Below are positions 5,687 to 62,092 of a stretch of DNA of 64,000 bases, in pieces; positions within the stretch are counted from its first letter, which is position 1, and the number at the start of each line of letters is the position of its first letter. Under the pieces are notes generated by a model, which worked only from the letters and a program-made list of their open reading frames with translations, did no database searches and was not told where the DNA came from. The stretch lies in NCBI GenBank assembly GCA_041650835.1, contig JBAZKL010000002.1, positions 602,435 to 666,434 of the forward strand. Reading direction: 5' to 3'. This DNA comes from Candidatus Omnitrophota bacterium (GTDB lineage Bacteria > Omnitrophota > Gorgyraeia > Gygaellales > Profunditerraquicolaceae). Made by a program: the position numbers and the translations under genes.

Positions 5687-6701
5687 CCTCTATAGAAATA
5701 GCTTTCATGCACGCGTGGCTTAAACAATCGCCTTTTGAACAAGGGCTGCACGCAAGGTCCTTGCGGATAACGGCCGCTTGCTTTCCTGCCGGAGAATAGC
5801 GCAACGGGTCAGTGGGCCCCATCAATGAAACAACCGGGGTTCCTAAGGCGCCTGCCAGGTGCATCGGCCCGGAATTATTGCATATCAAAAGTTTACACCC
5901 GGATAATACCGAAATGAGCGCTTTTATATCAGTTAAGCGCGCCTGGGCCCTGCTGTCATTGATCCCTGCGACGATATCGCTGACCAGGTCTTTTTCTCCG
6001 GGAGCTCCCAGTACAACGATCTTGAGGGAATAGGTTCCCAGCAATTTCTTCGCTAATAAAGCAAAAGAAGATTTATCCCAGCGCTGCGTTGCGTAAAATC
6101 CTCCGGGATGTATGGCGATGATATCATCTTTTGCGCCCCGGCTACCTAGGTCAAGCTTTGGGGTATCGACCGTAACCGGGATCTTTAACCCCTTTAATAA
6201 TTCAAGGTTCAGCTGGGCCATATTTTTTCCGGGGCGCCGTAGCGGGTCGGCCGTATGGGTGAAAAAGATCTCTTTAAAACCAAACCGGAAACCCGCCCGG
6301 ACAGGCGCGGCGCTTATATACGCTAAAAAGGCTGAATCGAACCGGTAATCACAATGCATATCGATCGCCAGGTCATAGCCTGCCCGCCGGATCTTTACGG
6401 CGGCAGGTATTATTTTATCATAGACTTCGATATGGTCGATACTTTTAATCAACTCCGCCAATTCTTTCAAATAGGGGCGCACGACGATACTGATCGCTGC
6501 CTGCGGCAGCGCCAGCTTAAGATTATCAATTAACGGTAACGTTAAGATCAAATCCCCCATACGGTCGATCCTGACGATCAAAATGTTCGCGAAAGAAGCG
6601 CTCGTGCGCGCGCGGGGAGGATAAACGCACTTGAGCAGAAAAATAAACGGCAATCGCAAAACAAAATACACTTCCCTGAGTATTTTCTTAAGTACCGTCA
6701 T
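5634..6701 (-). CDS. Glycosyltransferase family 9 (heptosyltransferase-like), second copy
   Basis: ILIVRIDRMGDLILTLPLIDNLK and the C-terminal GPMHLAGALGTPVVSL match GT9. Confidence 0.8.
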   Translation of the reverse strand: MTVLKKILREVYFVLRLPFIFLLKCVYPPRARTSASFANILIVRIDRMGDLILTLPLIDNLKLALPQAAISIVVRPYLKELAELIKSIDHIEVYDKIIPAAVKIRRAGYDLAIDMHCDYRFDSAFLAYISAAPVRAGFRFGFKEIFFTHTADPLRRPGKNMAQLNLELLKGLKIPVTVDTPKLDLGSRGAKDDIIAIHPGGFYATQRWDKSSFALLAKKLLGTYSLKIVVLGAPGEKDLVSDIVAGINDSRAQARLTDIKALISVLSGCKLLICNNSGPMHLAGALGTPVVSLMGPTDPLRYSPAGKQAAVIRKDLACSPCSKGDCLSHACMKAISIEDVFQAVKIILQKEYGIT

Positions 6702-9382: not shown

Positions 9383-9842
9383 TACTCTCTCCCTTTATTT
9401 GAACTCAAAAGACACCTGCGACTATTCGAGCCGCTCATTATACCTGGCGCCCCAGAGCCCCAGTCACCAGTAACCAGTAACCAGCTACGATAACTAGTGA
9501 TTTAATATACGGTGAACGGGTCCTGTCTTGGACTATTTTCTCGCGGGGACGTTTGCCCCGCCCCGGCGTGGCGGGGCTGCACTCAGGTCGGCTGCGTCGC
9601 TCTGCCCGACTTCGTTTATCGAGGGGCATCCATGCCCGCCCCGTTAGAAACCACGTTTTCTAACGGGGCCCGCTCCTTGCCTTTATGCCCCGCTCGTAAA
9701 CAGTCCAAGCCACCCGTTCATCCGATACTCTATAACTCCCCGTCTACCATGGACCGGGGACTATGGACCATCGGCTAACTGTTTACCCCGAGCTTGTCGA
9801 GGGGTGTCTTGTGTCATGCGACCTGTTTACTCCGGACACGCT
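9383..9842. other. GC-rich, hairpin-dense structured intergenic element (copy A of a two-member family). It is a candidate ncRNA or MITE-like element.
   Basis: It contains tandem CCAGT heptads at 9449-9487, a 12-bp perfect stem at 9631-9660, a GCCCCGCC/GGCGGGGC stem, a ctaccatggaccggggactatggacc block at 9744-9772, a ccccgagcttgtcgagggg hairpin at 9786-9804 and a terminal hairpin at 9811-9839. Its GC content is far above the flanking genes. Confidence 0.5.
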
Positions 9843-26256: not shown

Positions 26257-26742
26257 ATTTACCTCCTCGTCTAATGTTCTAACATATCATAGAATCAATG
26301 GGTTATCAAGTGTTTTCTGTCGTTGGATTATGCTAAGATAGGGTTAAAAACATCAGGCGCGATAACACAGGCCGCAAGTGTTCGATAGTCCACAGTCCAT
26401 GGTAGATGAGAAACTTTACGGTTATGCTGGAGCGCACATTAGAAAACTTTCGGCACAGAGTCATATGGGGAGTGCACAAGGAATTACGGCGAGTTGAAGC
26501 ACGCTCTTTACGTAAGTCTATAGCGTAAACGAGCCGTAAACCGCAGTGCACGGCGAAAGTTTTCAGTGCGCGGAAGCATGACCGTAAAGTTTGATCGTAA
26601 AAAAACAGATGACTGGAACACTGGAGACTGGAGCATCCGGAAAACAGGGAATCAGGTTGCAGGTCACCCCTTGACAAACTCGGGGTGAATGAGGCATAAG
26701 CGCGCCATAGGCATGCCTCATTCAAGCTCAAATAACATAGGA
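26257..26742. repeat. Structured intergenic element (copy B), related to 9383-9842. It has a 48-bp imperfect inverted repeat and is MITE-like or a candidate ncRNA.
   Basis: The inverted-repeat arms at 26411-26458 and 26548-26595 are about 85% identical. The element also has ACTGG (CCAGT on the minus strand) heptads at 26611-26635, a ccccttgacaaactcgggg hairpin at 26667-26685, a 12-bp stem hairpin at 26686-26724 and a ccatggac...ggactat block at 26378-26405. Confidence 0.5.
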
Positions 26743-32150: not shown

Positions 32151-33137
32151 TTAATTCATGGGCTTTTTACCTTCCCATGTCTGCCATGTTAAAATATACT
32201 TCTTGACCCAGTCGACATCTTTATCGCTGCCTTTGGTTAAACTTAAATATTTCCTGAAATGCTCTATTGCCTTCGGACGATTAACCAGGTATTCCGAATA
32301 AATGTAGCCGATATTATAATGAGACGAGGCATCTTCGGGATTTAATTCCGTTGATTTTTCGAATTCCGCGATCGCGCGCGAGAATTCCTTATTTTTGGTA
32401 TAGAAAACACCCAGGTTATAATGCATCAGCGCTGTTTCTTTTATCAAGACCTTATTTTCCCGCGCGATCTCAGCGATACGCGCCGGCAGAGCTTCCGCTT
32501 TTTTCTCAAGTGAACGGTTCTTGATGAGCGCTTCCTCATACCTGCGCTTGAATTCTTTTACCTGGCGGCGGTAGACTTCGATCTGCGCGTCACTATCGAG
32601 CTTACGCTCCTCATAACGCTTGAGTTGAGCTTCAATACCCCCGTATTTCCTCTGTAGATCTTTTTTATCATTTTGTAACCGGCCGATCTCTTTTCTTGTC
32701 TCAGGGACAACCTTATATTCAACCTCAAGTTTATCAACAGCGCTCTCCAGAGATTGTTTTTCCTGCGCCAGCAGGGTTACCCGGTCTTCCAGGTCTTTCA
32801 CGCCTTTTTTTAAAGCGGCATTTTCTTCTTCTAAGACCCTGGATGCCTCTGCCGACTGGGACTTATTCGTGTCATATGCTGATTGCAGCTTCATATTTTC
32901 TTCCTGCAATTGCTTGATCTTCACGTCTACCTCTAAATATTTCGCTTTATACTCAAGAAGATTCTTCGACTGCGCCAGGACATTATCCCGGTCAGCGACA
33001 ACTTTTTCGTATTCTTTTTTCAGCTTATCGTATTCTGTTTTAAGGTTATCCTGCGCGTAAACCCGCGGTATGAAACCGATGACCATGGCCACAATAAATA
33101 AGGTTTTTATTTTCATAGGTAAGGGATTATGCTCCAT
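32151..33137 (-). CDS. Secreted coiled-coil protein with C-terminal TPR repeats. It is a paralog of the C-terminus of the 35153-38230 protein.
   Basis: It has a signal peptide and coiled coil. The C-terminus HYNLGVFY...SHYNIGYIYSE...KAIEHFRKYLSL matches the C-terminus of the 1025-aa protein. Confidence 0.6.
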   Translation of the reverse strand: MEHNPLPMKIKTLFIVAMVIGFIPRVYAQDNLKTEYDKLKKEYEKVVADRDNVLAQSKNLLEYKAKYLEVDVKIKQLQEENMKLQSAYDTNKSQSAEASRVLEEENAALKKGVKDLEDRVTLLAQEKQSLESAVDKLEVEYKVVPETRKEIGRLQNDKKDLQRKYGGIEAQLKRYEERKLDSDAQIEVYRRQVKEFKRRYEEALIKNRSLEKKAEALPARIAEIARENKVLIKETALMHYNLGVFYTKNKEFSRAIAEFEKSTELNPEDASSHYNIGYIYSEYLVNRPKAIEHFRKYLSLTKGSDKDVDWVKKYILTWQTWEGKKPMN

Positions 33138-33138
33138 G

Positions 33139-34932
33139 TTAAAAATTCTTGACCGGTTTTAATACCGGCAAACGATCCATATCCTGTTTTACCGGTTGAT
33201 AATTCTGGTACGCCTTCAACTCTACCGGTGTATTTTCCTCGGAAAAATCCTGGTATTTCTGGTACTCTTTATCCAAGGTATGGCCAAAATCACGGTCATA
33301 ACCGGTAACAAGTTCATCGCCTTCCACGACATGAGGGGTCAATAAGATCACCAATTCCGCCCGCACCTTCTTATTGGTTTTCGTCTTAAAAGCCTCACCG
33401 ATGAACGGGATCTTGCTTAAAAACGGCGTGCCGCTGGAATCAAGGGTCTTTTCTTCTTTACTTAAACCGCCGATCAAGATACTGGAACCGTCCTTGACCA
33501 TAACGATCGTTTCCGCGGTCGATGTGTCGATTATCGGGATCTTATTCTTACTGGAAGTTTCCAGGAATGAGATAACGCTTGAGATCTCCGGTTTTATTTT
33601 AACGGTAACGAAACCATCATCATTGATCGTAGGAGTGACCATCATTTGTATACCGACATCAACATAGGTGACTGCTTCCGATACGGTCGTGCTTGTCTGC
33701 GTTTGAGTAGTTGTCGTCGTTATATAGGCCTGCCGCTCGCCGACATGGATCTTGGCTTCCTGATTGTTGACCACGGCCAGCTTCGGGTTGGAAAGTATGC
33801 GCGTTTCTCCTAAAGTCTGCAAATAATGGATAATGACGTCAAAATCATTCTTGCCGACAACGCCCAAATGGATCTCTTCGGTCGAGGTTTTCGGAGTCGA
33901 GGAGGAAAAATCAGTTGTCGTCCCGGAAAAGGGGTACGCACCGACATATCCGGTATCCTCAACGACCTCCTTGCGGGAACGCCAGGTATTGCTCGTTGCC
34001 GTCGTAGACGGGCCGACTGAACTCAAAGGAGTCGATCCAAGATACGTAGTCCCCCATCTCTTTCCGAGGTTAAACAAGCCCTCCCATTCAACGCCGGAAC
34101 CGACGGAATCGGTCAGTTTGACCTGGATGATCTTTGCGTCAATAAGTATCTGCTTGGTCTTTTTATCCAGGCTCTGTATTAAACGGCTGATATCCTCCAT
34201 GCGCTCAGGCAGGGTTTGCACGATAACCTGGTTTGTCCGCTCATCAGCTTTAATAGAGCCTAATTTCTTTACATCGATTTGAGGCTTTAATTGCTCTTCA
34301 ATGTCCTTGGCGCGGGCGTATTTCAGGTCAAAGACCATAATAACATTCTTTTTCTCCATCGCCTGCAAGGTGGCCTCCATGCTCTTGACACGCTCCGCGG
34401 TATCCATAACCAGGATAACCCCGGAATCCTGGTCCAGGAGTATCTTACCTATCTCGCTCTTAAGCGTGTTCAAAAGATTATACGCCTGTTCGGGGATCGC
34501 GTATTTTAGATTAAAGACGCGGGTGACCCTGGTATCAATAAAATTCTTGCCGTAGCGGGCCTTATATTCATTCTCGGTCATTACATTATAAATATCGCCT
34601 TTTTTCTCATACGCCAGGTTATTACTGCGCAAGATAATGTCAAAAACATCCTTGGCAGGCACATTATCGACCATAAGCGATGTCCGGCCGGAAACTTCTT
34701 TTGTAGGGATGATATTCAAACTCGCTTTTGTGGCGATATATTTCAATGCTTCGATTATTTCCATGTCCCGCAGGTCTAAAGAGATCGTTACCTTGGGAAA
34801 ATCATCGTTTATGGCAGCTGCTTCCTTTTGAAAAGGGAGCTTATCCGCGCGCTGTAACCCCTGCGCGTAAGAATTCATTATCCCGCAAAAAACGGGAATA
34901 ATCAATAAAGAATACACCTTAAATAATTTCAT
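33139..34932 (-). CDS. Secretin (GspD/PilQ/MshL family)
   Basis: Secretin_N repeats are followed by the C-terminal secretin domain ...TAETIVMVKDGSSILIGGL...PFLSKIPFIGEAF...LVILLTPHVV. Confidence 0.85.
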   Translation of the reverse strand: MKLFKVYSLLIIPVFCGIMNSYAQGLQRADKLPFQKEAAAINDDFPKVTISLDLRDMEIIEALKYIATKASLNIIPTKEVSGRTSLMVDNVPAKDVFDIILRSNNLAYEKKGDIYNVMTENEYKARYGKNFIDTRVTRVFNLKYAIPEQAYNLLNTLKSEIGKILLDQDSGVILVMDTAERVKSMEATLQAMEKKNVIMVFDLKYARAKDIEEQLKPQIDVKKLGSIKADERTNQVIVQTLPERMEDISRLIQSLDKKTKQILIDAKIIQVKLTDSVGSGVEWEGLFNLGKRWGTTYLGSTPLSSVGPSTTATSNTWRSRKEVVEDTGYVGAYPFSGTTTDFSSSTPKTSTEEIHLGVVGKNDFDVIIHYLQTLGETRILSNPKLAVVNNQEAKIHVGERQAYITTTTTQTQTSTTVSEAVTYVDVGIQMMVTPTINDDGFVTVKIKPEISSVISFLETSSKNKIPIIDTSTAETIVMVKDGSSILIGGLSKEEKTLDSSGTPFLSKIPFIGEAFKTKTNKKVRAELVILLTPHVVEGDELVTGYDRDFGHTLDKEYQKYQDFSEENTPVELKAYQNYQPVKQDMDRLPVLKPVKNF

Positions 34933-35163: not shown

Positions 35164-38100
35164 TTTTTAGTTCCTGATCCGCGGTCTCCCACGTAAGCAC
35201 GAACCTTCTGACCTGTTCGGCTTCGGGGTCATTGGGCGCTAACGCTAAATATTTCCTGAAATGGACGATCGCCTTCTTACGGTCATTTAATTGCTCGCTG
35301 AAGATAACGCCTAAATTATAATGGCTCTCAGCGTCATCCGGTTTTAATTCCAAGACTTTCTGGAATTCCTTGACCGCCTTATCATATTCCTGCTTCTGGG
35401 CATACATGACCCCCAGGTTATACCGTAACACGGTATTTTCCTGAGGCAATTCAGCGTACCGGTTGGTCAGTGTCTCATGCCTGTCCTTGGCCTCTTCGGT
35501 GATCTTGAAACGCTGCGTTAACTGGTCATAATTATTTTTCAAATTCTGATAATCCTCCATTAATTCCTTATATTGCTTTTCCACCTCTTCTTTATTCTTG
35601 ACCCGCTGTTCATAATCCTGGAGCTTGCGGTTATATTCTTTTGTTTTCTCAAGTAATTCGTTTTTCGAAGCCTCCAAGTCAGCCACTTTCTTAGTCATTG
35701 CGGGAGGCGGCATTCCGCCCATCTTTTCTTTATCTTTTTCTAACCGGGTGAACTGATTTTGTAAATCATTGACCTGTTCGGAAACAGCCACGTATTGATT
35801 TTTCAAGAAAGTATTTTGCTCAAGCAGCTTCTTATTTTCATCCGTTAAAAGATTCTTTTGAGCTTCCAATTCTTTAAGCTGGGAGAGATTCTGTTTTTGC
35901 TGGTTCAAGAGAGTGCTTTTTTCCTGCACGAGCTGATAAGAGAGGTCCTGAGAACTGCGCAGATCAGACTGGACTTTATTAAGCGAATCGGTAAGTGAAC
36001 GCGTATCCGCTTCTTGGAGGGATTTATATTCCCTGAACTTGTCATTAAGCTGCGCCCACTCGCCCTCTTTATGCGCTTTCACCTGCGCGATCTCGGCATC
36101 AAGGAGCGCCCTATCCTGCTCCTTATTGGTTTTTAACTTTGTGATCTGATCAAAAAGCCCGTCCCGCCCCCGTTTAAGCTCATCACATTCCTGCCGAAGC
36201 TGGGCCTTCTCTTTTTCATTCTGGGATATTTGCGCCAGCAATTGCTCGGTCTTTTGCTGGTAACTTTGGGCTTGGGCCGCTGAACCTGTTTTGAGATTTT
36301 CCGCGTCCGCAAGCCTGACCATGGCGCGCGCTAACTGTTCGGAGATCCTGGTGCGCTCCTCAAGGATAGTCAGGTTTTTCTGCATACAATCCTGATACTG
36401 CTCTTCTAAAACCGCGTTCGCGCTCTCTAACGCTTTGGTCTTAGCGCTCAACACATTCTCCTGGCTCTGATAAACCGCTTTTTCCTGGATCAATTGCCCG
36501 GAAAGCTCCTGCGCGACCTTCAGGTCCTTTTGCAGCTTACTTATCTGTTGCGCAAAAGTATTATCGCTCTGGGCTTCAGAGAGAGAAGCTTCTTTTTCCC
36601 TGCTTTCTTTGAGCTGCGCCGATAGGACAGTAATGCTGTTTTTAAGCTCATCGGCCTGTTTCTGGGCGGTTAAACGCTCCTTTTCCAACTGTTCGGATCT
36701 ATTGCGCAGCTGCGCTAATTCCTGCGATGAAATATTTTTCTGTTTACTCGTAAGGGCTTCCTGCCGCGAGAGATTGCGCTCCGCTTCAAGATGAACCAGC
36801 TTCTGGCGTAACTGCGCGATATCCCGGTCAGACCCCAGTTGCTTCTTTAACTCCTCAGCCTGCGCCGCTATCTGGTCCCGTTCAGATTCAACCTTAGCTA
36901 ACTTTGCGCGTAACTGATCCAGATCCTTGGGCGAAGACAGCTGTTTCTTTAACGCCGCCCCTTCATCCCGCAGATGGTCGCGCTCTTCCTCCAATTTCAT
37001 CACCTTGTTACGCAACACGGAAACTTCTTTTTCCGAACCCAGCTGTTTCTTTAAAACTTCAACCTGCTTCTGTAAAACATTACGGTCTTCTTCTATTGCC
37101 GCGAATTTAGAGCGCACCCGCGCGATATCATCCTCAGAGCCTATCTGCGATCTCACCGTTTTAACTTCAGACTGCAAAGAATTACGTTCTTCTTCTAATT
37201 GAGCGAATTTCTCCCGCAATTTTTCAATTTCTTTTTGAGAGACCAGTTGTTTTTTAAGGCCTGCTGCTTCCTGCTGAAGCCGGTTACGCTCTTCCTCAAG
37301 CTTTGAGGCCTTATCACGCAGAGCGTCAAAATCACGTTTCGCGATGATCTCTTTTTTCAGGCGCGCGGCATCTTCTTTTAACGTATCGCGTTCTTCTTCG
37401 ACGAGCGACAATCTTTCGCGAAGTTCTTTTGCTTCCTGAGAAGCAACCGACAGCTCCTTAAAACGGATATCTTTTTCTTTCAAATCATCCGTCAACTGCC
37501 GGCGCTCTTCCTGGAGTTCCGATACCCGCAGGCGTATCTGGTCAATATCTTTTTGCGCGACGATCTTCCTTTTCAGCGAATTTGACTCTTCCTGCAGCTG
37601 GACGCGCTCGGTCACCGCGTCTGCCAATTTATCACGCAGCGCCTCGAGTTCTTTCTGCGGCACCTGTTTTTTCTTAAGGGCGTTTAATTTAACATTAAGC
37701 TCATTGCGCTCTAATTCGACGCCGGTGAGCTTATCGCGCAGCTGTTCAATCTCTTTCCTTAACGACTGGACCTCCCCTCCTAAGACAACCCTGACTGTTT
37801 CAAGGTCACTGAGCTGCCCGGAAACATCCTTTTGTTTACTTTGAATAAATTCTTTCTCTTGGGTCAAGCGGTTGATCAATTCCTGAAAGCTCTTAAAATC
37901 ATCCTGAAGCTTGAATATCTTCTCATTCAAAGACCTGTTTTCCTGTTCCTTCAACCCGCAGAGCTCCTTAAGCTGTAAAAGCGCCTGCTGAGAGAGCAAA
38001 AGCTCATCCTTTGCTTTTTTAAGCAAATTAATAAGCTTGTCTTTGCTCAAGGCTGAATCAACGCTATCAAGATCGGCCGTGATCGCCTTGAGATCGTCTT

Positions 38101-38230: not shown

Positions 38231-40044
38231 CGTGAAAGCGATTTAGGCCCTTTCATTTCCAATCTTTGTTTCTCAACCGGCATAAAAACCGGAGCCGCCG
38301 GTTCAACAAGTTCTTCTTTCTTCAATGCGCGGTAATCTTTCGGCGGCTTGACTGCGCCACCGCCGACTTCCTTCAAAACAGGGCCGGCTACCAAAACTTC
38401 TCCGGAGATCATTTTTGGCGTCAGAATGATCAATAACTCCGTCTTTTCTTTTGACTTCGATTTTACACTGAAGAAGCGGCCAAGTAAAGGAATATCTCCC
38501 AATACCGGAGTCTGCTGCGCGGTAGAACTTTCCGTTTCTTTACGCAGCCCCCCGATAATAACGGTTGAACCGTCTTTAACCATAACGGTGGTTTCCGCAA
38601 GCGACGTATCGATGATAGGGATCTGATTTTTAGTCGGAGTAATCAGCATCTCCAGGACGCTGTTGATCTCAGCTTTTATTTTCAGGGTGATGAAGCCTTC
38701 ATCGTTTATGATCGGAACGACGGAAATGATAACGCCGACGTCGACAAAGGTCACCTGTTCGGAAACAGTATTGGTAGTCTGTCCGGTTGTCGTCGTTGTC
38801 GTCACATAGGCTTCTTTCTGTCCGACATGGATCTTCGCTTCCTGATTATTAATTATGGCGAGTTTTGGATTGGAAATAACCTTGGTCTTTCCTTTTGTCT
38901 GCAAATACTTAATGACCGTATCAAAATCATGCTTACCGACAACCCCCAGGTGCATTTCTTCGGTCCCGATCTTCGAACTGCTGGAAGAATAATTGGTTGT
39001 CGTACCGCTAAAAGGATATGAACCTACGTTTCCCACGGTATCCCATACCGAACTGCGTGAACGCCAGGTATCGGTTGACGCCTGCACCGACGCAAACGGC
39101 GTAGACCCCAGGTAACTCATGCCGAATTGCCGGCCTAAATCAAATAATCCTTCCCACTGTATTCCTTCGCTGGTATCATCCGATAATTTCACATTGACGA
39201 TATTGATATCAACAATGATCTCCTTTGTCTTCTGGTCAAGGGCTTTGATCAGCTTTTCGATCTGATCCATACGCTTCGGAAGAGTCTGCACGATTAATTG
39301 ATTACCCCGCTCATCCGCCTTGATCAAGCCGACCTTCTTGGAATCAAGCTGATTCTTCAAGGCTTCTTCCACATCCTTAGCCTTGGCGTAATTCAATTTG
39401 AAGACTTTAACGGTATTTTTTTCCTCAAAATCCTTCAACACCTTATCCATAATTTCGATGCGAGCGGCGGAATCGATCACTAATACATTACCGGATTCCG
39501 GATCGACTAATACCCTGCCGATCTCGCTTTTAAGCATATCCAGCAAGCTGAAAGCCTGTTCCGGAACGATGTAATTCAAATAAAAGACCTTTACCTGGCG
39601 GATATCGGCAAAATTCTTCCCGTAAAGCACCCGGTATTCTTCCTGAGTCATGACATTATAGATCTCCCCCTGCTTATCGTACGCGAGATTATTACTGCGA
39701 AGCATAAGATCGAAGACATCCTGGATAGGGGCATTCTCGACCATAAGCGTTACCCTGCCTATGACGGCCTTTGTCGTAACAATATTCATTCCGGCCTTCA
39801 TAGACAAAAACTTTAACGCATCAACAACATCGATATTTCTTAAATCAAGGGAGATCTTCCCCGCGAGGACAGTTACCGGAGGAGCGACCATGGGTTGCAG
39901 GAGCGTCGCTTGAGCTAATTGTATTAATTTATTATCGGCTGAGCCCGCAGGCTCAGCATGAAGGCCGGGAGTAACGCAAAGGCTTACGCAGGCAAAGGAA
40001 GGGATGAAAACAAGGTATTTTAAGAACTTTTTCTTTAATATCAT
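38227..40044 (-). CDS. Secretin (second paralog)
   Basis: LAETTVMVKDGSTVIIGGL...PVLGDIPLLGRFF...LLIILTPKMI is the secretin signature, preceded by N-terminal Secretin_N-type domains. Confidence 0.85.
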   Translation of the reverse strand: MILKKKFLKYLVFIPSFACVSLCVTPGLHAEPAGSADNKLIQLAQATLLQPMVAPPVTVLAGKISLDLRNIDVVDALKFLSMKAGMNIVTTKAVIGRVTLMVENAPIQDVFDLMLRSNNLAYDKQGEIYNVMTQEEYRVLYGKNFADIRQVKVFYLNYIVPEQAFSLLDMLKSEIGRVLVDPESGNVLVIDSAARIEIMDKVLKDFEEKNTVKVFKLNYAKAKDVEEALKNQLDSKKVGLIKADERGNQLIVQTLPKRMDQIEKLIKALDQKTKEIIVDINIVNVKLSDDTSEGIQWEGLFDLGRQFGMSYLGSTPFASVQASTDTWRSRSSVWDTVGNVGSYPFSGTTTNYSSSSSKIGTEEMHLGVVGKHDFDTVIKYLQTKGKTKVISNPKLAIINNQEAKIHVGQKEAYVTTTTTTGQTTNTVSEQVTFVDVGVIISVVPIINDEGFITLKIKAEINSVLEMLITPTKNQIPIIDTSLAETTVMVKDGSTVIIGGLRKETESSTAQQTPVLGDIPLLGRFFSVKSKSKEKTELLIILTPKMISGEVLVAGPVLKEVGGGAVKPPKDYRALKKEELVEPAAPVFMPVEKQRLEMKGPKSLSR

Positions 40045-44787: not shown

Positions 44788-44930
44788 CAAGTCTAAAGTT
44801 TAAAGTCTAAATATCCAAGGAAGGTTCAAGACTAAAGGCTAAATTTTAAAATTACCTGCCGGCCGGCAGGCAGGAACCTTTAACCTTCAAACTTCCTTTG
44901 TTATTTATACTTTGGCCTTTAAAATTAAAA
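44788..44930. repeat. AT-rich palindromic intergenic repeat of about 140 bp, family copy 1
   Basis: The arms are built from taaag/ctttaa words with aaggaagg and cttccttt cores, around a GC palindromic centre cctgccggccggcagg. The other three copies are at 54235, 57385 and 61960. Confidence 0.65.
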
Positions 44931-54234: not shown

Positions 54235-54376
54235 AAATTTTAAAGTTTAAAGGTTAAATAACAAAGGAAGTCTCAAGTTTAAAGGATAAATTTTAAAATT
54301 TCGTACCTGCCGGTAAGCAGGAACCTTTGGACTTTGAACTTCCTTTATTCTTTGGATTTTAACCTTTGATCTTTAC
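54235..54376. repeat. AT-rich palindromic intergenic repeat, family copy 2
   Basis: It has the same arm words as copy 1 and the centre cctgccggtaagcagg. Confidence 0.65.
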
Positions 54377-54409: not shown

Positions 54410-55345
54410 TTATAAGATTTTAATGTAGGCCTGTTTTCTTAACCCTTCTACCCATTTGAGAAGCTCTTCCTGCATCTTCTTTTCGAAAATAAACCGGTAG
54501 ATCTCCTGTTGAGCCTCTTCAAAGCTCTGCTCTTTCGGCGGGATGATATTATTCAGTCTAAAAACATAAAAATAACCTTCACTCTTTACCGGATGGCTTA
54601 GTTCGCCGACCTTAAGATTAAAAACAGCCTCTTCGATCTCTTTACGTAATTCCTGGCCGCCGCCGCGCGCGCTCAACTTAGTGATCTTTATCGGATATTT
54701 AAGGGAAAGGTCGATAAAACTCTCTCCCGCGGCGATCTTTGCATAAACTTCCTGAGCGGTCGCGGCATCCTCCGCTTCAATAGAATCAAACTCACGCTGC
54801 TCGGGAACCCTAAAATCTTTAATGTTCTTGTAATAGAAATCCGTAACCTCTCCCGGATTAATACTGATCTTAGCGCGGACCTGTGTTTCGACAATAGCAT
54901 ACATGAGCATCTGCTCACGGATCCTCTTTTCCAGGTCAGCGGTTACCAGCCCTTGGGCAGCCAAAGAGCTCTGATATTCCGCTTCACTATTATAGCGCTT
55001 ACGGATCTCCGCCAATTTATCTTTGACCCTGGTCTCATCGATCCCGGTATCTTTCTTCTTAGCCTCCTGAAGGATAAGCCGGTCTTCGATCAAACGCTCC
55101 AACAGGTCTGATTTTATCGACGCGATCTTTTGCTGGACCTGGTCTTCGGGATATTCGCGCGAAAGCTGCACATAGGTAAAATTAATAAAATCATTCAGGT
55201 CTTTTTGCGTGATAATATCGCTATTGACCACCGCGATCATTTTATCCGCGGCGACGGCCTGCGAAGAGAATACAAAAAAAACAGAACATACAATAAGAAA
55301 AATAAGGGGCGCGAGCGCCTGGTTTTGAGCGTTACATTTGCGCAT
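54410..55345 (-). CDS. SurA/PrsA-like periplasmic chaperone with a PpiC-type PPIase domain
   Basis: A signal peptide, a SurA-N-like helical region and a parvulin-like SHPVKSEGYFYVF are present. The start was trimmed to M23. Confidence 0.7.
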   Translation of the reverse strand: MRKCNAQNQALAPLIFLIVCSVFFVFSSQAVAADKMIAVVNSDIITQKDLNDFINFTYVQLSREYPEDQVQQKIASIKSDLLERLIEDRLILQEAKKKDTGIDETRVKDKLAEIRKRYNSEAEYQSSLAAQGLVTADLEKRIREQMLMYAIVETQVRAKISINPGEVTDFYYKNIKDFRVPEQREFDSIEAEDAATAQEVYAKIAAGESFIDLSLKYPIKITKLSARGGGQELRKEIEEAVFNLKVGELSHPVKSEGYFYVFRLNNIIPPKEQSFEEAQQEIYRFIFEKKMQEELLKWVEGLRKQAYIKIL

Positions 55346-57239
55346 GGTTAAAAACTCCTGCTTGTTTAAAATTGTCAATCGCTTCTCTGAGCAGCCGGCA
55401 ATACAGGTCAAATCCGACGGCGTTAATAAAACCGTGCTGTTGCACGCCCAAAAGATTACCTGCGCCTCTGATCTCCAGATCTTCCATCGCGATCTTAAAG
55501 CCGGAACCTAATTGCGTGTATTCCTGAATAGCATGCAGCCGTTTATGGGCATCCGTGCTTAAAACCCGGTGCCGGGGGACTAAAAAAAAGGCGTAGGCCG
55601 GACGGTTAAACCTGCCTACCCTTCCCCTGAGCTGATGCAGATCAGACACCCCGAACGTATGCGCGTCATCAATAATGATGGTATTCACATTCGGGATATC
55701 GATCCCTGATTCAATGATCATGGTGCATAAAAGGACGTCGATCTTGCCTTTTAAAAGCTCGGACATTACCTTTTCCAGGTATTGCGGCGGCATCTTTCCG
55801 TGCGCCACCTCTATCACGGTAGTCACCGGAAGGAGTTTTACCAGGCGCTGGCGCACCTTCTCAATATCATGGATGCGGTTATGCAAAAAATAGACCTGCC
55901 CCTTACGGTTGAGCTCCCGCGAGATCGCCTGGAGGATAATATCTTCGTCATATTCTATCACAATCGTTTTTATAGGCAATCTATTTTCAGGAGGAGTATT
56001 GATCACGGAAAAATCCTTGGCGTTCATCAGGCTTAAATATAATGTCCGGGGTATAGGCGTGGCCGTCAAGGTCAAAACATCGGTGGTCAAGCGAAGCGAT
56101 TTGAGCTTTTCCTTGGCTTTGACGCCGAAACGCTGCTCTTCATCGATGATCACCAGGCCCAGGTCTTTAAACCTGACATCATCGGACAATAAGCGGTGCG
56201 TCCCGATGACAATATCGATCGCGCCGGCGCTAATACCTTCAATGATCTGTTTTTGCTCACCCGGAGTCTTGAACCTAGAGAGCATTTCGACATTAACGGG
56301 AAAATCTTTAAGCCGCTGAGTGAAATTCTGGTAATGCTGCTCAGCCAGGATAGTCGTCGGGACTAAATACGCCACCTGTTTATTATCCATGACAGCCTTA
56401 AATGCGGCTCGCATCGCGACTTCCGTCTTGCCGTAACCTACGTCGCCGCACAAAAGGCGGTCCATCGGCTTAATACTTTCCATATCTTTTTTTACTTCGG
56501 AAGCTGCGGTAATCTGGTCCGGCGTCTCTTTATAGGGGAATGTCCGCTCAAATTCTTTCTGCCAGGGGGTATCCACGGCGAATGAAAAACCCTGGATCGA
56601 TAAACGCATCGCCTGTAACGATAACAGCTCGATCGCCAGCTTTTGGATCCCCTTCTTTGCCCGCTCTTTGATCCTCTGCCATTCTTTACTTCCCAAGCGG
56701 TAGAGCTTTGGCCTGCGCAGCTGGAAAGCCACATATTTTTGCACCAGGTTCATGCTCTCGACAGGGACAAAAAGCTTTTCCTGCCGGTCGTATTCAATGA
56801 CCAGATGCTCCTGCATCTTTTCCCTGACCTTGATCTTTTCAAAGCCGAGGAACCTGCCGATACCATGCTGGTTATGGACGACATAATCTCCTCTGTGCAA
56901 ATCAAGGAAGTTATCCAGAGGGAAGGATTCATTAAAAGCAGCCGCCTTAAAAGAATGCAGCTTCTTCACCGGCAGGATAATGACCATGGTGTGGGGCCAC
57001 AGAGGGTTGCCTTCCGCGGGATTATACGTCTTTATCGAGAGGACCACATCATCCTCAAGTTCAATGCGGACAGGCAGCTCAAAAGTATAGGGAAAGATAT
57101 CGACAATAGAGCCGCGACAGGCGAAATCGCCTTCTTCAGCAGCAAAATCCTGCCGCTTATACCCGAATTCGGCCAGCAAACGGATGATCGCTTCCAGCCC
57201 AAGGGAGCTACCGATATGTAGTTTAAGGGATTTAAACAC
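55332..57239 (-). CDS. mfd: Transcription-repair coupling factor Mfd, short form lacking the UvrB-homology N-terminal domains
   Basis: A CarD/TRCF RNAP-interaction domain is followed by a DEAD-box helicase (GDVGYGKTEVAMRAAF, DEEQRFG). The protein is only 635 aa. Confidence 0.75.
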   Translation of the reverse strand: MFKSLKLHIGSSLGLEAIIRLLAEFGYKRQDFAAEEGDFACRGSIVDIFPYTFELPVRIELEDDVVLSIKTYNPAEGNPLWPHTMVIILPVKKLHSFKAAAFNESFPLDNFLDLHRGDYVVHNQHGIGRFLGFEKIKVREKMQEHLVIEYDRQEKLFVPVESMNLVQKYVAFQLRRPKLYRLGSKEWQRIKERAKKGIQKLAIELLSLQAMRLSIQGFSFAVDTPWQKEFERTFPYKETPDQITAASEVKKDMESIKPMDRLLCGDVGYGKTEVAMRAAFKAVMDNKQVAYLVPTTILAEQHYQNFTQRLKDFPVNVEMLSRFKTPGEQKQIIEGISAGAIDIVIGTHRLLSDDVRFKDLGLVIIDEEQRFGVKAKEKLKSLRLTTDVLTLTATPIPRTLYLSLMNAKDFSVINTPPENRLPIKTIVIEYDEDIILQAISRELNRKGQVYFLHNRIHDIEKVRQRLVKLLPVTTVIEVAHGKMPPQYLEKVMSELLKGKIDVLLCTMIIESGIDIPNVNTIIIDDAHTFGVSDLHQLRGRVGRFNRPAYAFFLVPRHRVLSTDAHKRLHAIQEYTQLGSGFKIAMEDLEIRGAGNLLGVQQHGFINAVGFDLYCRLLREAIDNFKQAGVFNHAQM

Positions 57240-57263
57240 GATCGTTAATGTCGTTATTTTCGT

Positions 57264-57330
57264 TACTATCGTTTAGTTCGTTAAACGAAACTAATGATGT
57301 TACCGAAAACAACGAACTAAACGATAGTAA
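57264..57330. promoter_or_regulatory. 20-bp perfect inverted repeat immediately upstream of the mfd start
   Basis: The arms ttactatcgtttagttcgtt and aacgaactaaacgatagtaa are separated by a 27-nt spacer. Confidence 0.4.
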
Positions 57331-57364
57331 AAAGGACGCGAGGGAAATCCCTTGCGTCCTTTTA
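57331..57364 (-). terminator. Rho-independent terminator downstream of secDF
   Basis: The stem aaaggacgcgaggg/cccttgcgtccttt is followed on the minus strand by UUUUUAC. Confidence 0.55.
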
Positions 57365-57384
57365 GAGACGAGAATTGACACTTA

Positions 57385-57548
57385 AAATAACTATTTAAAA
57401 TTAAAGTCTAAAGGTTAAAGTCTAAATAATAAAGGAAGATTAAAGGCCTAATGTTCCTATCTGTTGGTAGGCAGGTAATTTTAAAATTTATCCTTTAAAC
57501 TTTAAGCTTCCTTTGTTATTTAACCTTTAGGCTTTAACCTTAACTTAC
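57385..57548. repeat. AT-rich palindromic intergenic repeat, family copy 3 (rearranged or inverted core)
   Basis: It contains taaagtctaaaggttaaagtctaaata ... cttcctttgttatttaacctttaggctttaacc and the centre ggtaggcagg. Confidence 0.6.
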
Positions 57549-57569
57549 TATTAGCAATTACCTGAAATC

Positions 57570-61959: not shown

Positions 61960-62092
61960 TTAATTTTAAAGTCTAAAGTTTAAAGATCAAAGGAAGGTTT
62001 AAAATTAAAGTTTAAATTTTAAAATTGATCATTAAACCTTTAATCTTCCTTTGATATTTAGACTTTAACCTTTAAACTTTAGCTTTTAAAGC
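61960..62092. repeat. AT-rich palindromic intergenic repeat, family copy 4. Its right end overlaps the hisI 3' end and stop codon.
   Basis: ttttaaagtctaaagtttaaagatcaaaggaagg...cttcctttgatatttagactttaacctttaaacttt. The last 7 codons of hisI (KIALKAKV*) are encoded by the repeat. Confidence 0.65.

Follow-up and report, generated by a model that had tools for sequence, protein, structure and literature searches.

The window, by which we mean the whole 64,000-nt stretch of a Candidatus Omnitrophota contig that was analysed, contains four AT-rich, imperfect palindromes of 118-141 nt, all of them intergenic. These palindromes belong to a dispersed family whose members are present at some orthologous sites and absent from others, and their arms are homologous to those of longer copies that carry a gene. 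The gene belongs to family PF05635, whose members in general were found to sit between inverted arms made of heptamer words. In our reading, the four copies and a fifth one beyond the end of the window are probably gene-less, MITE-like miniatures of a palindromic selfish cassette that carries a PF05635 gene and is of the type known from the intervening sequences (IVS) of 23S rRNA.

The genes that the copies adjoin belong to housekeeping operons and, like all other genes in the window, are encoded on the minus strand. An earlier, sequence-only reading had placed four copies between co-directional genes, and its coordinates proved correct to within a few bases. Copies 1 and 2 share one orientation, and copy 3 has the opposite one. 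The features are the following (orientation is that of the family; bit scores are from nhmmer):

44789..44929, orientation plus: copy 1, 154.9 bits, hairpin of -38/-47 kcal/mol; between a histidine-kinase gene (start 44719) and an MCP gene (stop 44992).
44855..44874, no strand: nested GC-rich mini-palindrome of copy 1, CCTGCCGGCCGGCAGGCAGG, followed on the minus strand by TAATTTTAAA, terminator-like.
54236..54375, orientation plus: copy 2, 148.8 bits; between pdxA (start 54208) and a surA-like gene (stop 54410).
54306..54321, no strand: nested mini-palindrome of copy 2, CCTGCCGGTAAGCAGG.
57402..57541, with the palindrome reaching to 57386-57552, orientation minus: copy 3, 146.1 bits; between a conserved, probable terminator hairpin (57336-57365) upstream of mfd and secDF (stop 57570).
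57456..57475, no strand: nested mini-palindrome of copy 3, degenerate, CCTATCTGTTGGTAGGCAGG.
61960..62080, orientation plus: copy 4, a short form without the GC insert, 102 bits; between trpE and hisI.
Locus L071, 7304-7430 (window-equivalent ~64528-64654): fifth copy, outside the window, between hisH and hisA, found with the family HMM.

Copy 4 makes up the entire gap between hisI and trpE: its left end lies 3-4 nt from the trpE ATG (61957), and on the right its outermost words extend over the hisI stop codon. With the fifth copy, which lies ~530 nt past the window end, there are five copies in ~20 kb. A pattern search found no copies in the first 44 kb of the window, an absence that is uninformative given the few free intergenic gaps there. 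A scan of the window at Rfam gathering scores gave no matches, and no tRNA or tmRNA genes were found in it.

The arms consist of degenerate 7-nt words, which read NNTAAAG in one arm and CTTTANN in its partner and are arranged around a AAAGGAAG / CTTCCTTT core. Their period is evident from a self-identity of 54-62% at lag 7, compared with 11-30% at lags 3-5. The arm pattern TAAAGNNTAAAGNNTAAANNNNNAAGGAAG, searched with up to three mismatches, matched exactly the eight arms (0.01 matches expected). The AAAGGAAG core occurs 15 times against 4.2 expected, and the AAATTTTAAAATT centre 10 times against 1.0 expected. The arms are inverted along their whole length, several copies end in GTTAA...TTAAC, and the centre between the arms is only 13-35 nt long; the copies have no coding capacity. 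Folding confirmed the long hairpin proposed for each copy: it formed in all four and on either strand, at -34 to -48 kcal/mol, with z-scores of -2.9 to -7.1 relative to shuffled sequences. The GC-rich palindromic centre of the sequence-only reading is present in copies 1-3 (in degenerate form in copy 3) but missing from copy 4, and it lies outside the family consensus.

Other repeats were also noticed in the window. Further 7-nt arrays lie at 9455-9490, 9743-9770, 26379-26406 and 26611-26633 and are built from CCAGTAA (x3.6), GACTGGA (x3.1) and GGACTAT/GGACCA, the last of these as an inverted pair spanning 16 kb; besides TAAAG, several other heptamer-word families are thus present in the genome. 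A hairpin repeat, GAATGAGGCAT...ATGCCTCATTC, is found at 26683-26730 and again in loci L005 (6012-6062), L029 and L039, often followed by CCCGAGCTnnGTCGAGGGG, which also occurs at window positions 9787-9806. In the sister genome this hairpin repeat abuts and truncates TAAAG elements, so that repeats are nested in mosaics. Within coding regions, direct repeats of 70-83% identity (33707-33951 and 38789-39033; 32244-32420 and 35246-35422) reflect paralogous gene pairs ~3-5 kb apart.

Stable hairpins within and between operons could be host-selected RNA elements acting in cis, whether as intrinsic terminators, attenuators, mRNA-stabilising hairpins or translational regulators that use the Shine-Dalgarno (SD)-like AAAGGAAG. 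The GC mini-palindromes of copies 1 and 2, taken with the adjoining TAATTTT, point the way the genes are transcribed and fit a terminator consensus. The likeness of AAAGGAAG to an SD sequence is fair, and in the gene-carrying locus L084 (see below) the ORF has an AAAGGAG SD in front of it; in the window copies the core is not followed by a conserved start codon. We analysed the 12 full copies with RNAalifold and by pair counting and found no covariation: 75.5% of the cells pair, compared with 79.4% after shuffling of partners, and changes on both sides of a pair were observed 8 times, compared with 14.6 in the shuffles. The columns that pair are no more than those of the conserved words. The variable spacers mostly fail to pair, and their mismatches are alike in all copies, so that the copies descend from one imperfect palindrome. 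The sense strand was the more stable one in only one of the four window copies. The GC mini-palindrome abutting TAATTTT mimics an intrinsic terminator, and copies free of this insert lack the mimic; where GC stem and T-run occur, five copies face the gene direction and three the opposite one. With no covariation, strand bias or consistent orientation, a selected terminator or regulatory RNA is unsupported, and nothing here points to RNA-level selection on the elements.

We then compared orthologous gaps between relatives. Gene order from hisD to ksgA is perfectly syntenic in four genomes, namely that of the window and those of loci L096, L099 and L100, whose TrpE proteins are 93%, 89% and 72% identical, respectively, to that of the window organism. 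No element is present in the four syntenic gaps of L099 and L100, which measure 49/-7, 9/29, 109/16 and 74/83 nt. Thus, the gap between hisI and trpE (the site of copy 4) is 9 nt long in L099 and 29 nt in L100, that between mfd and secDF (copy 3) is 109 and 16 nt long, and that between pdxA and surA (copy 2) measures 74 nt in L099, all without the element. The closest genome, L096, has no full copy at the syntenic sites either; its hisH-hisA gap has kept only a remnant of the left arm, which passes directly into the ribosome-binding site of hisA, consistent with a deletion bounded by two direct AAGGAA repeats. In L096 the remaining three gaps are occupied by palindromes of other kinds, built from different 7-nt words (GTGACCT, GGACTGT and TAGGTTN/AACTACC). 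One heptamer was gained or lost between orthologous remnants. Since the orthologous gaps are empty in relatives and full copies are absent from L096, the copies are insertions, and, to judge from these alignments, the window copies were gained in this Omnitrophota lineage after its split from the relatives with empty gaps. The lack of elements at orthologous sites in relatives of 89-93% TrpE identity also argues against a selected terminator, mRNA stabiliser or regulator, as had been suggested from the sequence, and together with the missing covariation, Rfam match and conserved start codon makes a host-selected RNA decidedly unlikely in our judgement.

One site gave a candidate for a target-site duplication. 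The filled and empty hisI-trpE gaps align cleanly if TTAA is taken to be duplicated; the other sites are ambiguous, being too diverged and having AT-rich targets that the arm words resemble. With TTAA also occurring within the arm words, the hisI-trpE duplication is ambiguous as well. Integron attC sites were considered and rejected, given the housekeeping flanks that are syntenic across four genomes, the spacing of 3-9 kb and the one inverted copy. CRISPR arrays and retrons were likewise rejected on the basis of the syntenic housekeeping flanks, the irregular spacing and the inverted copy.

The surroundings of copy 3 showed additional features. Directly upstream of the mfd start, at 57242-57335, a 9-nt word, TAACGANNN, forms inverted arrays in which one 20-bp inverted repeat is perfect; unlike the TAAAG element, these arrays are conserved in L096 and L099, and they may be a genuine regulatory site. 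The adjacent GC-rich hairpin between an A-run and a T-run (57336-57365, AAAAGGACGCgagggaaatcccttGCGTCCTTTT) is also conserved in L096 and L099 and is probably the real bidirectional terminator after secDF. The Mfd-like ORF itself (55332-57239) encodes 635 aa with UvrB_inter, CarD_TRCF_RID, DEAD and Helicase_C domains; its length is equal in all four syntenic relatives, indicating that the Mfd of this lineage is naturally short.

Further copies were sought beyond the window by profile and pattern searches and were indeed found, giving ~16 distinct copies in all, which come from the window organism and from two or three populations of related Omnitrophota. Scanned across species-representative genomes, the pattern gave 70 loci that were spread over many phyla. 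On inspection, ~60 of them turned out to be plain (TAAAGGN)n tandem arrays ending in AAGGAAG, which are not members, and a cross-phylum spread of the family was rejected. The only true members among the species-representative genomes were those of the metagenome-assembled genome (MAG) GCA_964588175, to which L096 belongs and which has at least nine family copies away from the syntenic sites. A metagenome scan added copies from the JGI samples Ga0105098, Ga0265297, Ga0172379 and Ga0105091; the Ga0105098 organism is the same as that of the MAG. A pattern scan of viral contigs gave no matches, nor did a blastn search of plasmids and phages with copy 3 as query. Arms were on average 79% identical when compared inside the window genome and 78% when compared across genomes. 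This equality implies that the family is either old relative to the split or fast-evolving, and a divergence of ~20% that is equal within and between genomes gives no sign of a recent burst.

The plain arrays, found in loci L001-L070, are intergenic and often have an inverted (NCCTTTA)n array nearby; their hosts include Bacteroidota, Acidobacteriota, Desulfobacterota, Cyanobacteriota, Gammaproteobacteria, Fibrobacterota, Elusimicrobiota, Calditrichota and others. We also observed that GCA_964588175 (L003-L063, L096) is labelled 'uncultured Planctomycetales' at NCBI. This label is probably wrong, as judged from its TrpE, which is 93% identical to that of the window and has Candidatus Omnitrophota as nearest named homologues.

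The occurrence of plain (TAAAGGN)n arrays in many phyla, the 7-nt period of the arms, the heptamer gained or lost between orthologous remnants and the documented excess of heptamer simple sequence repeats in bacteria (PMC4692102) could all be accommodated by growth in situ, in which a heptamer microsatellite extends to inverted arrays by slippage and template switching and does not disperse. However, copies at different loci have in common non-periodic features, namely the AAAGGAAG core, the AATTTTAAAATT centre and an asymmetric pattern of spacers that are mismatched in the same way, at ~79% identity, and a single sequence family is found in at least three populations. Growth in situ is thus extremely improbable.

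Another component of the copies is the GC-rich centre, which is a separate mini-palindrome of ~16-20 nt with the consensus CCTGCCTGCCGGCAGGCAGG and is lacking in six of the 12 full copies. The same mini-palindrome was found inside unrelated repeat families of the sister genome, and a clean pair of sites is available for it: locus L039 is filled at 6148, and window 9666-9700 (GGGCCCGCTC directly followed by CTTGCC) is empty. The mini-palindrome is a second, independent mini-element that probably invaded about half of the copies later, near the hairpin tip. In this it resembles the cyanobacterial small dispersed repeats (SDR), which Elhai et al. are said to have described in 2008 as ~20-nt palindromic units nested in other repeats. 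Both are palindromic units of ~20 nt in other repeat families, with filled and empty host repeats and insertion near hairpin tips, and they differ in sequence and phylum. As a side observation, a dispersed, GC-rich, structured-looking repeat of ~210 nt lies at window 9512-9720, in a 460-nt intergenic gap, and also in loci L093 (778-932), L086 (4569-4761) and L039 (6168-6212). Its copies occur with and without a CCTGCC..GGCAGG mini-palindrome, and the window copy had no Rfam match at gathering score.

The clustering of the copies and their nesting with other small palindromes are also what a REP/REPIN-type element would show, that is, one moved as a single-stranded hairpin by a RAYT, an IS200/IS605-like tyrosine transposase. 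A hairpin that spans the whole element, the intergenic location and the lack of a clear target duplication are likewise consistent with it. Nevertheless, the elements are AT-rich and ~120 nt long, not GC-rich REPs of 20-40 nt, they have no GTAG/CGTC end tags (PMC3733652), they are without the compensatory changes reported for REPINs (PMC3116915), and no RAYT gene was seen in the examined loci. We therefore regard a REP/REPIN-type origin as very unlikely.

In longer relatives of the family, the arms enclose a gene. In L084, an Omnitrophota MAG contig, both arms surround a 117-aa ORF that is preceded by an AAAGGAG ribosome-binding site. The ORF encodes a four-helix-bundle protein (TIGR02436, 5e-23; PF05635, '23S rRNA-intervening sequence protein', 1.3e-18) whose nearest solved structure is 2RLD. 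Its closest homologue, P0122 (70% identity), is encoded in L114 and also lies between TAAAG/AAAGGAAG arms; the PF05635 genes of the two loci encode 117-119 aa. An HMM built from gene-less copies matched the two arms in each locus, with E-values of 3e-12 to 6e-9 in L084 and 2e-8 to 3e-7 in L114, and did not match the arms of the other PF05635 genes examined. That arms and ORF were kept together across a protein divergence of 30% argues for one unit. A phmmer search with the single L084 ORF gave no matches, and a regular expression followed by a profile from 120 homologues was needed; with this profile, no PF05635 ORF was found in the window or in the examined loci of the two closest genomes.

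These relatives also bear on whether the copies are classical MITEs, meaning deletion derivatives of a transposase-encoding insertion sequence (IS) whose terminal inverted repeats are recognised by the transposase in trans, with duplication of a short target such as TTAA. The copies are small, non-coding, bounded by inverted repeats, multi-copy and variably present between relatives; several end in GTTAA...TTAAC, and the hisI-trpE sites align cleanly with a TTAA duplication, ambiguous as this is with TTAA being part of the arm words. In contrast, the palindrome and the word period span the whole length of the copies and not the termini alone, ~0.9 Mb of related DNA yielded neither a transposase nor an IS whose ends match, and the only longer relatives, L084 and L114, carry a PF05635 gene and not a transposase. 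Taken together, we think a classical MITE unlikely. The MITE option of the sequence-only reading thus finds support in substance, given dispersed, non-coding copies that vary in presence between relatives and have longer gene-carrying relatives, but no transposase parent was found in the related DNA examined.

We next asked how general the association of PF05635 genes with such arms is, using 18 genes from seven phyla (Omnitrophota, Patescibacteria, Acidobacteriota, Gammaproteobacteria, Cyanobacteriota, Bacteroidota and Chloroflexota). Eleven came from metagenomes or MAGs (Omnitrophota, Patescibacteria, Acidobacteriota and a gammaproteobacterial symbiont) and seven from plasmids of cultured Cyanobacteriota, Bacteroidota and Chloroflexota. 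Inverted-complement flanks at z >= 3.5 relative to shuffles were found for 17 of the 18, a set in which 15 loci had been picked by protein similarity only and three, which are biased, through a heptamer-based search. Among the control genes, which were neighbours, only 1 of 48 had inverted flanks at this threshold (median z 0.4). Most PF05635 arms showed a lag-7 peak. Some cases were clear: pNPUN02 of Nostoc punctiforme carries (AATTCGC)4-ORF-(GCGAATT)4 (z 21), N. flagelliforme has (AATTCAA)4/(TTTTGAA)4 arms (z 17), and Planktothrix agardhii reached a z of 15. PF05635 genes therefore sit, in general, between inverted arms of heptamer words. We also noticed that on plasmids (L117, L118, L120, L121 and L122) the PF05635 genes were wedged into defence or transport operons, each with inverted heptamer arms of its own; the sites were between drmD and pglX, next to cas1, between cas2 and cas1, between a helicase and an N6-methylase, and between an RND adaptor and permease. 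The PF05635/TIGR02436 (S23p) proteins are presumably relatives of Avd, the accessory protein of DGRs, and we know of no catalytic or mobility function of the four-helix-bundle protein.

The known system that comes closest is the IVS of 23S rRNA found in Leptospira and Coxiella burnetii (PMC4990558). The C. burnetii IVS is a selfish 23S rRNA element with an S23p ORF and tandem heptameric repeats upstream of it; excision of its stem by RNase III was shown experimentally, and according to an older hypothesis cited there the IVS ORF serves mobility (PMC4990558). Like the family described here, rRNA IVSs have a long inverted-repeat stem around a PF05635 gene and also gene-less forms, with heptameric repeats that adjoin the ORF and vary in number between strains, and they are sporadic and regarded as selfish. 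The link to the window copies runs through L084 and L114, where a PF05635 ORF lies between arms homologous to theirs. Unlike rRNA IVSs, the window copies lie between protein-coding genes and not in helix 25 or 45 of 23S rRNA, and they lack the ORF.

With bacterial MITEs such as Correia/NEMIS, ERIC and RUP (PMC3184786, PMC10969869), the copies have in common a length below 200 nt, the lack of coding capacity, multiple intergenic copies, inverted-repeat bounds, long RNA stem-loops, a presence that differs between relatives and an apparent origin from a longer gene-carrying element. They differ in that the longer relative encodes a four-helix-bundle protein and not a transposase, and in that the arms are periodic 7-nt words throughout (for definitions of MITEs and REPINs, see PMC3184786, PMC3116915, PMC3733652). 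A third point of comparison are intergenic heptamer arrays. An unexplained excess of these, often as inverted pairs, has been described in Xanthomonas and Nostoc (PMC4692102), in Beggiatoaceae, Cyanobacteria and Bacteroidetes (TAACTGA; PMC4679880) and in Geobacter (PMC2700814). Such arrays, among them the cyanobacterial STRR, Xanthomonas GGGAATC (PMC4692102) and TAACTGA (PMC4679880), resemble the window family in their 7-nt period and intergenic location; convergent inverted pairs are common in Xanthomonas, close relatives lack the arrays or have them at a different length, and their function and origin are unexplained. They are, however, near-perfect tandem repeats that vary in situ, whereas the window family is a fixed degenerate sequence copied between loci. 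PF05635 is not mentioned in these papers (PMC4692102, PMC4679880, PMC2700814), and we found no paper tying PF05635 genes outside rRNA to heptamer arms or gene-less miniatures, in a literature coverage that is incomplete and leaves a prior description possible.

On the basis of these comparisons, the full form of the cassette would consist of two long inverted arms of 7-nt words that enclose a gene for a four-helix-bundle protein of 117-119 aa (PF05635/TIGR02436). The gene-less copies would have derived from this form by internal deletion, much as MITEs relate to insertion sequences, although capture of the gene by a pre-existing palindrome is a possible alternative direction. Copies would have entered the intergenic gaps of housekeeping operons after the lineage split, and about half of them would then have received the GC-rich mini-palindrome near the hairpin tip. 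By analogy with rRNA IVSs, the copies as RNA probably form hairpins of the RNase III type: a copy co-transcribed with its operon would fold into an imperfect hairpin of ~55 bp and be cut by RNase III, and any consequences for the neighbouring mRNAs would be side effects. The spread of the copies may require a trans-acting factor, for which the four-helix-bundle protein is a candidate.

Tentatively, we raise the possibility that PF05635/TIGR02436 genes mark a widespread and so far unrecognised class of selfish palindromic cassettes with inverted arms of 7-nt words. The footprints of this class might comprise the 23S rRNA IVSs, many of the intergenic inverted heptamer arrays of Cyanobacteria, Bacteroidota, Xanthomonas, Beggiatoaceae and others, and gene-less miniatures, and the small protein might recognise the arms and promote spread or maintenance.

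Finally, palindromic repeats that lie between genes and are confined to one lineage of uncultured bacteria are, by themselves, nothing unusual. Here, a MITE-like repeat is tied to a parent that would encode a four-helix-bundle protein of the 23S rRNA IVS family and not a transposase, which suggests one testable origin for rRNA IVSs, the excess of intergenic heptamers in bacteria and the role of PF05635 proteins. Cultured, tractable examples of PF05635 genes with such arms exist, for instance on pNPUN02 of Nostoc punctiforme.
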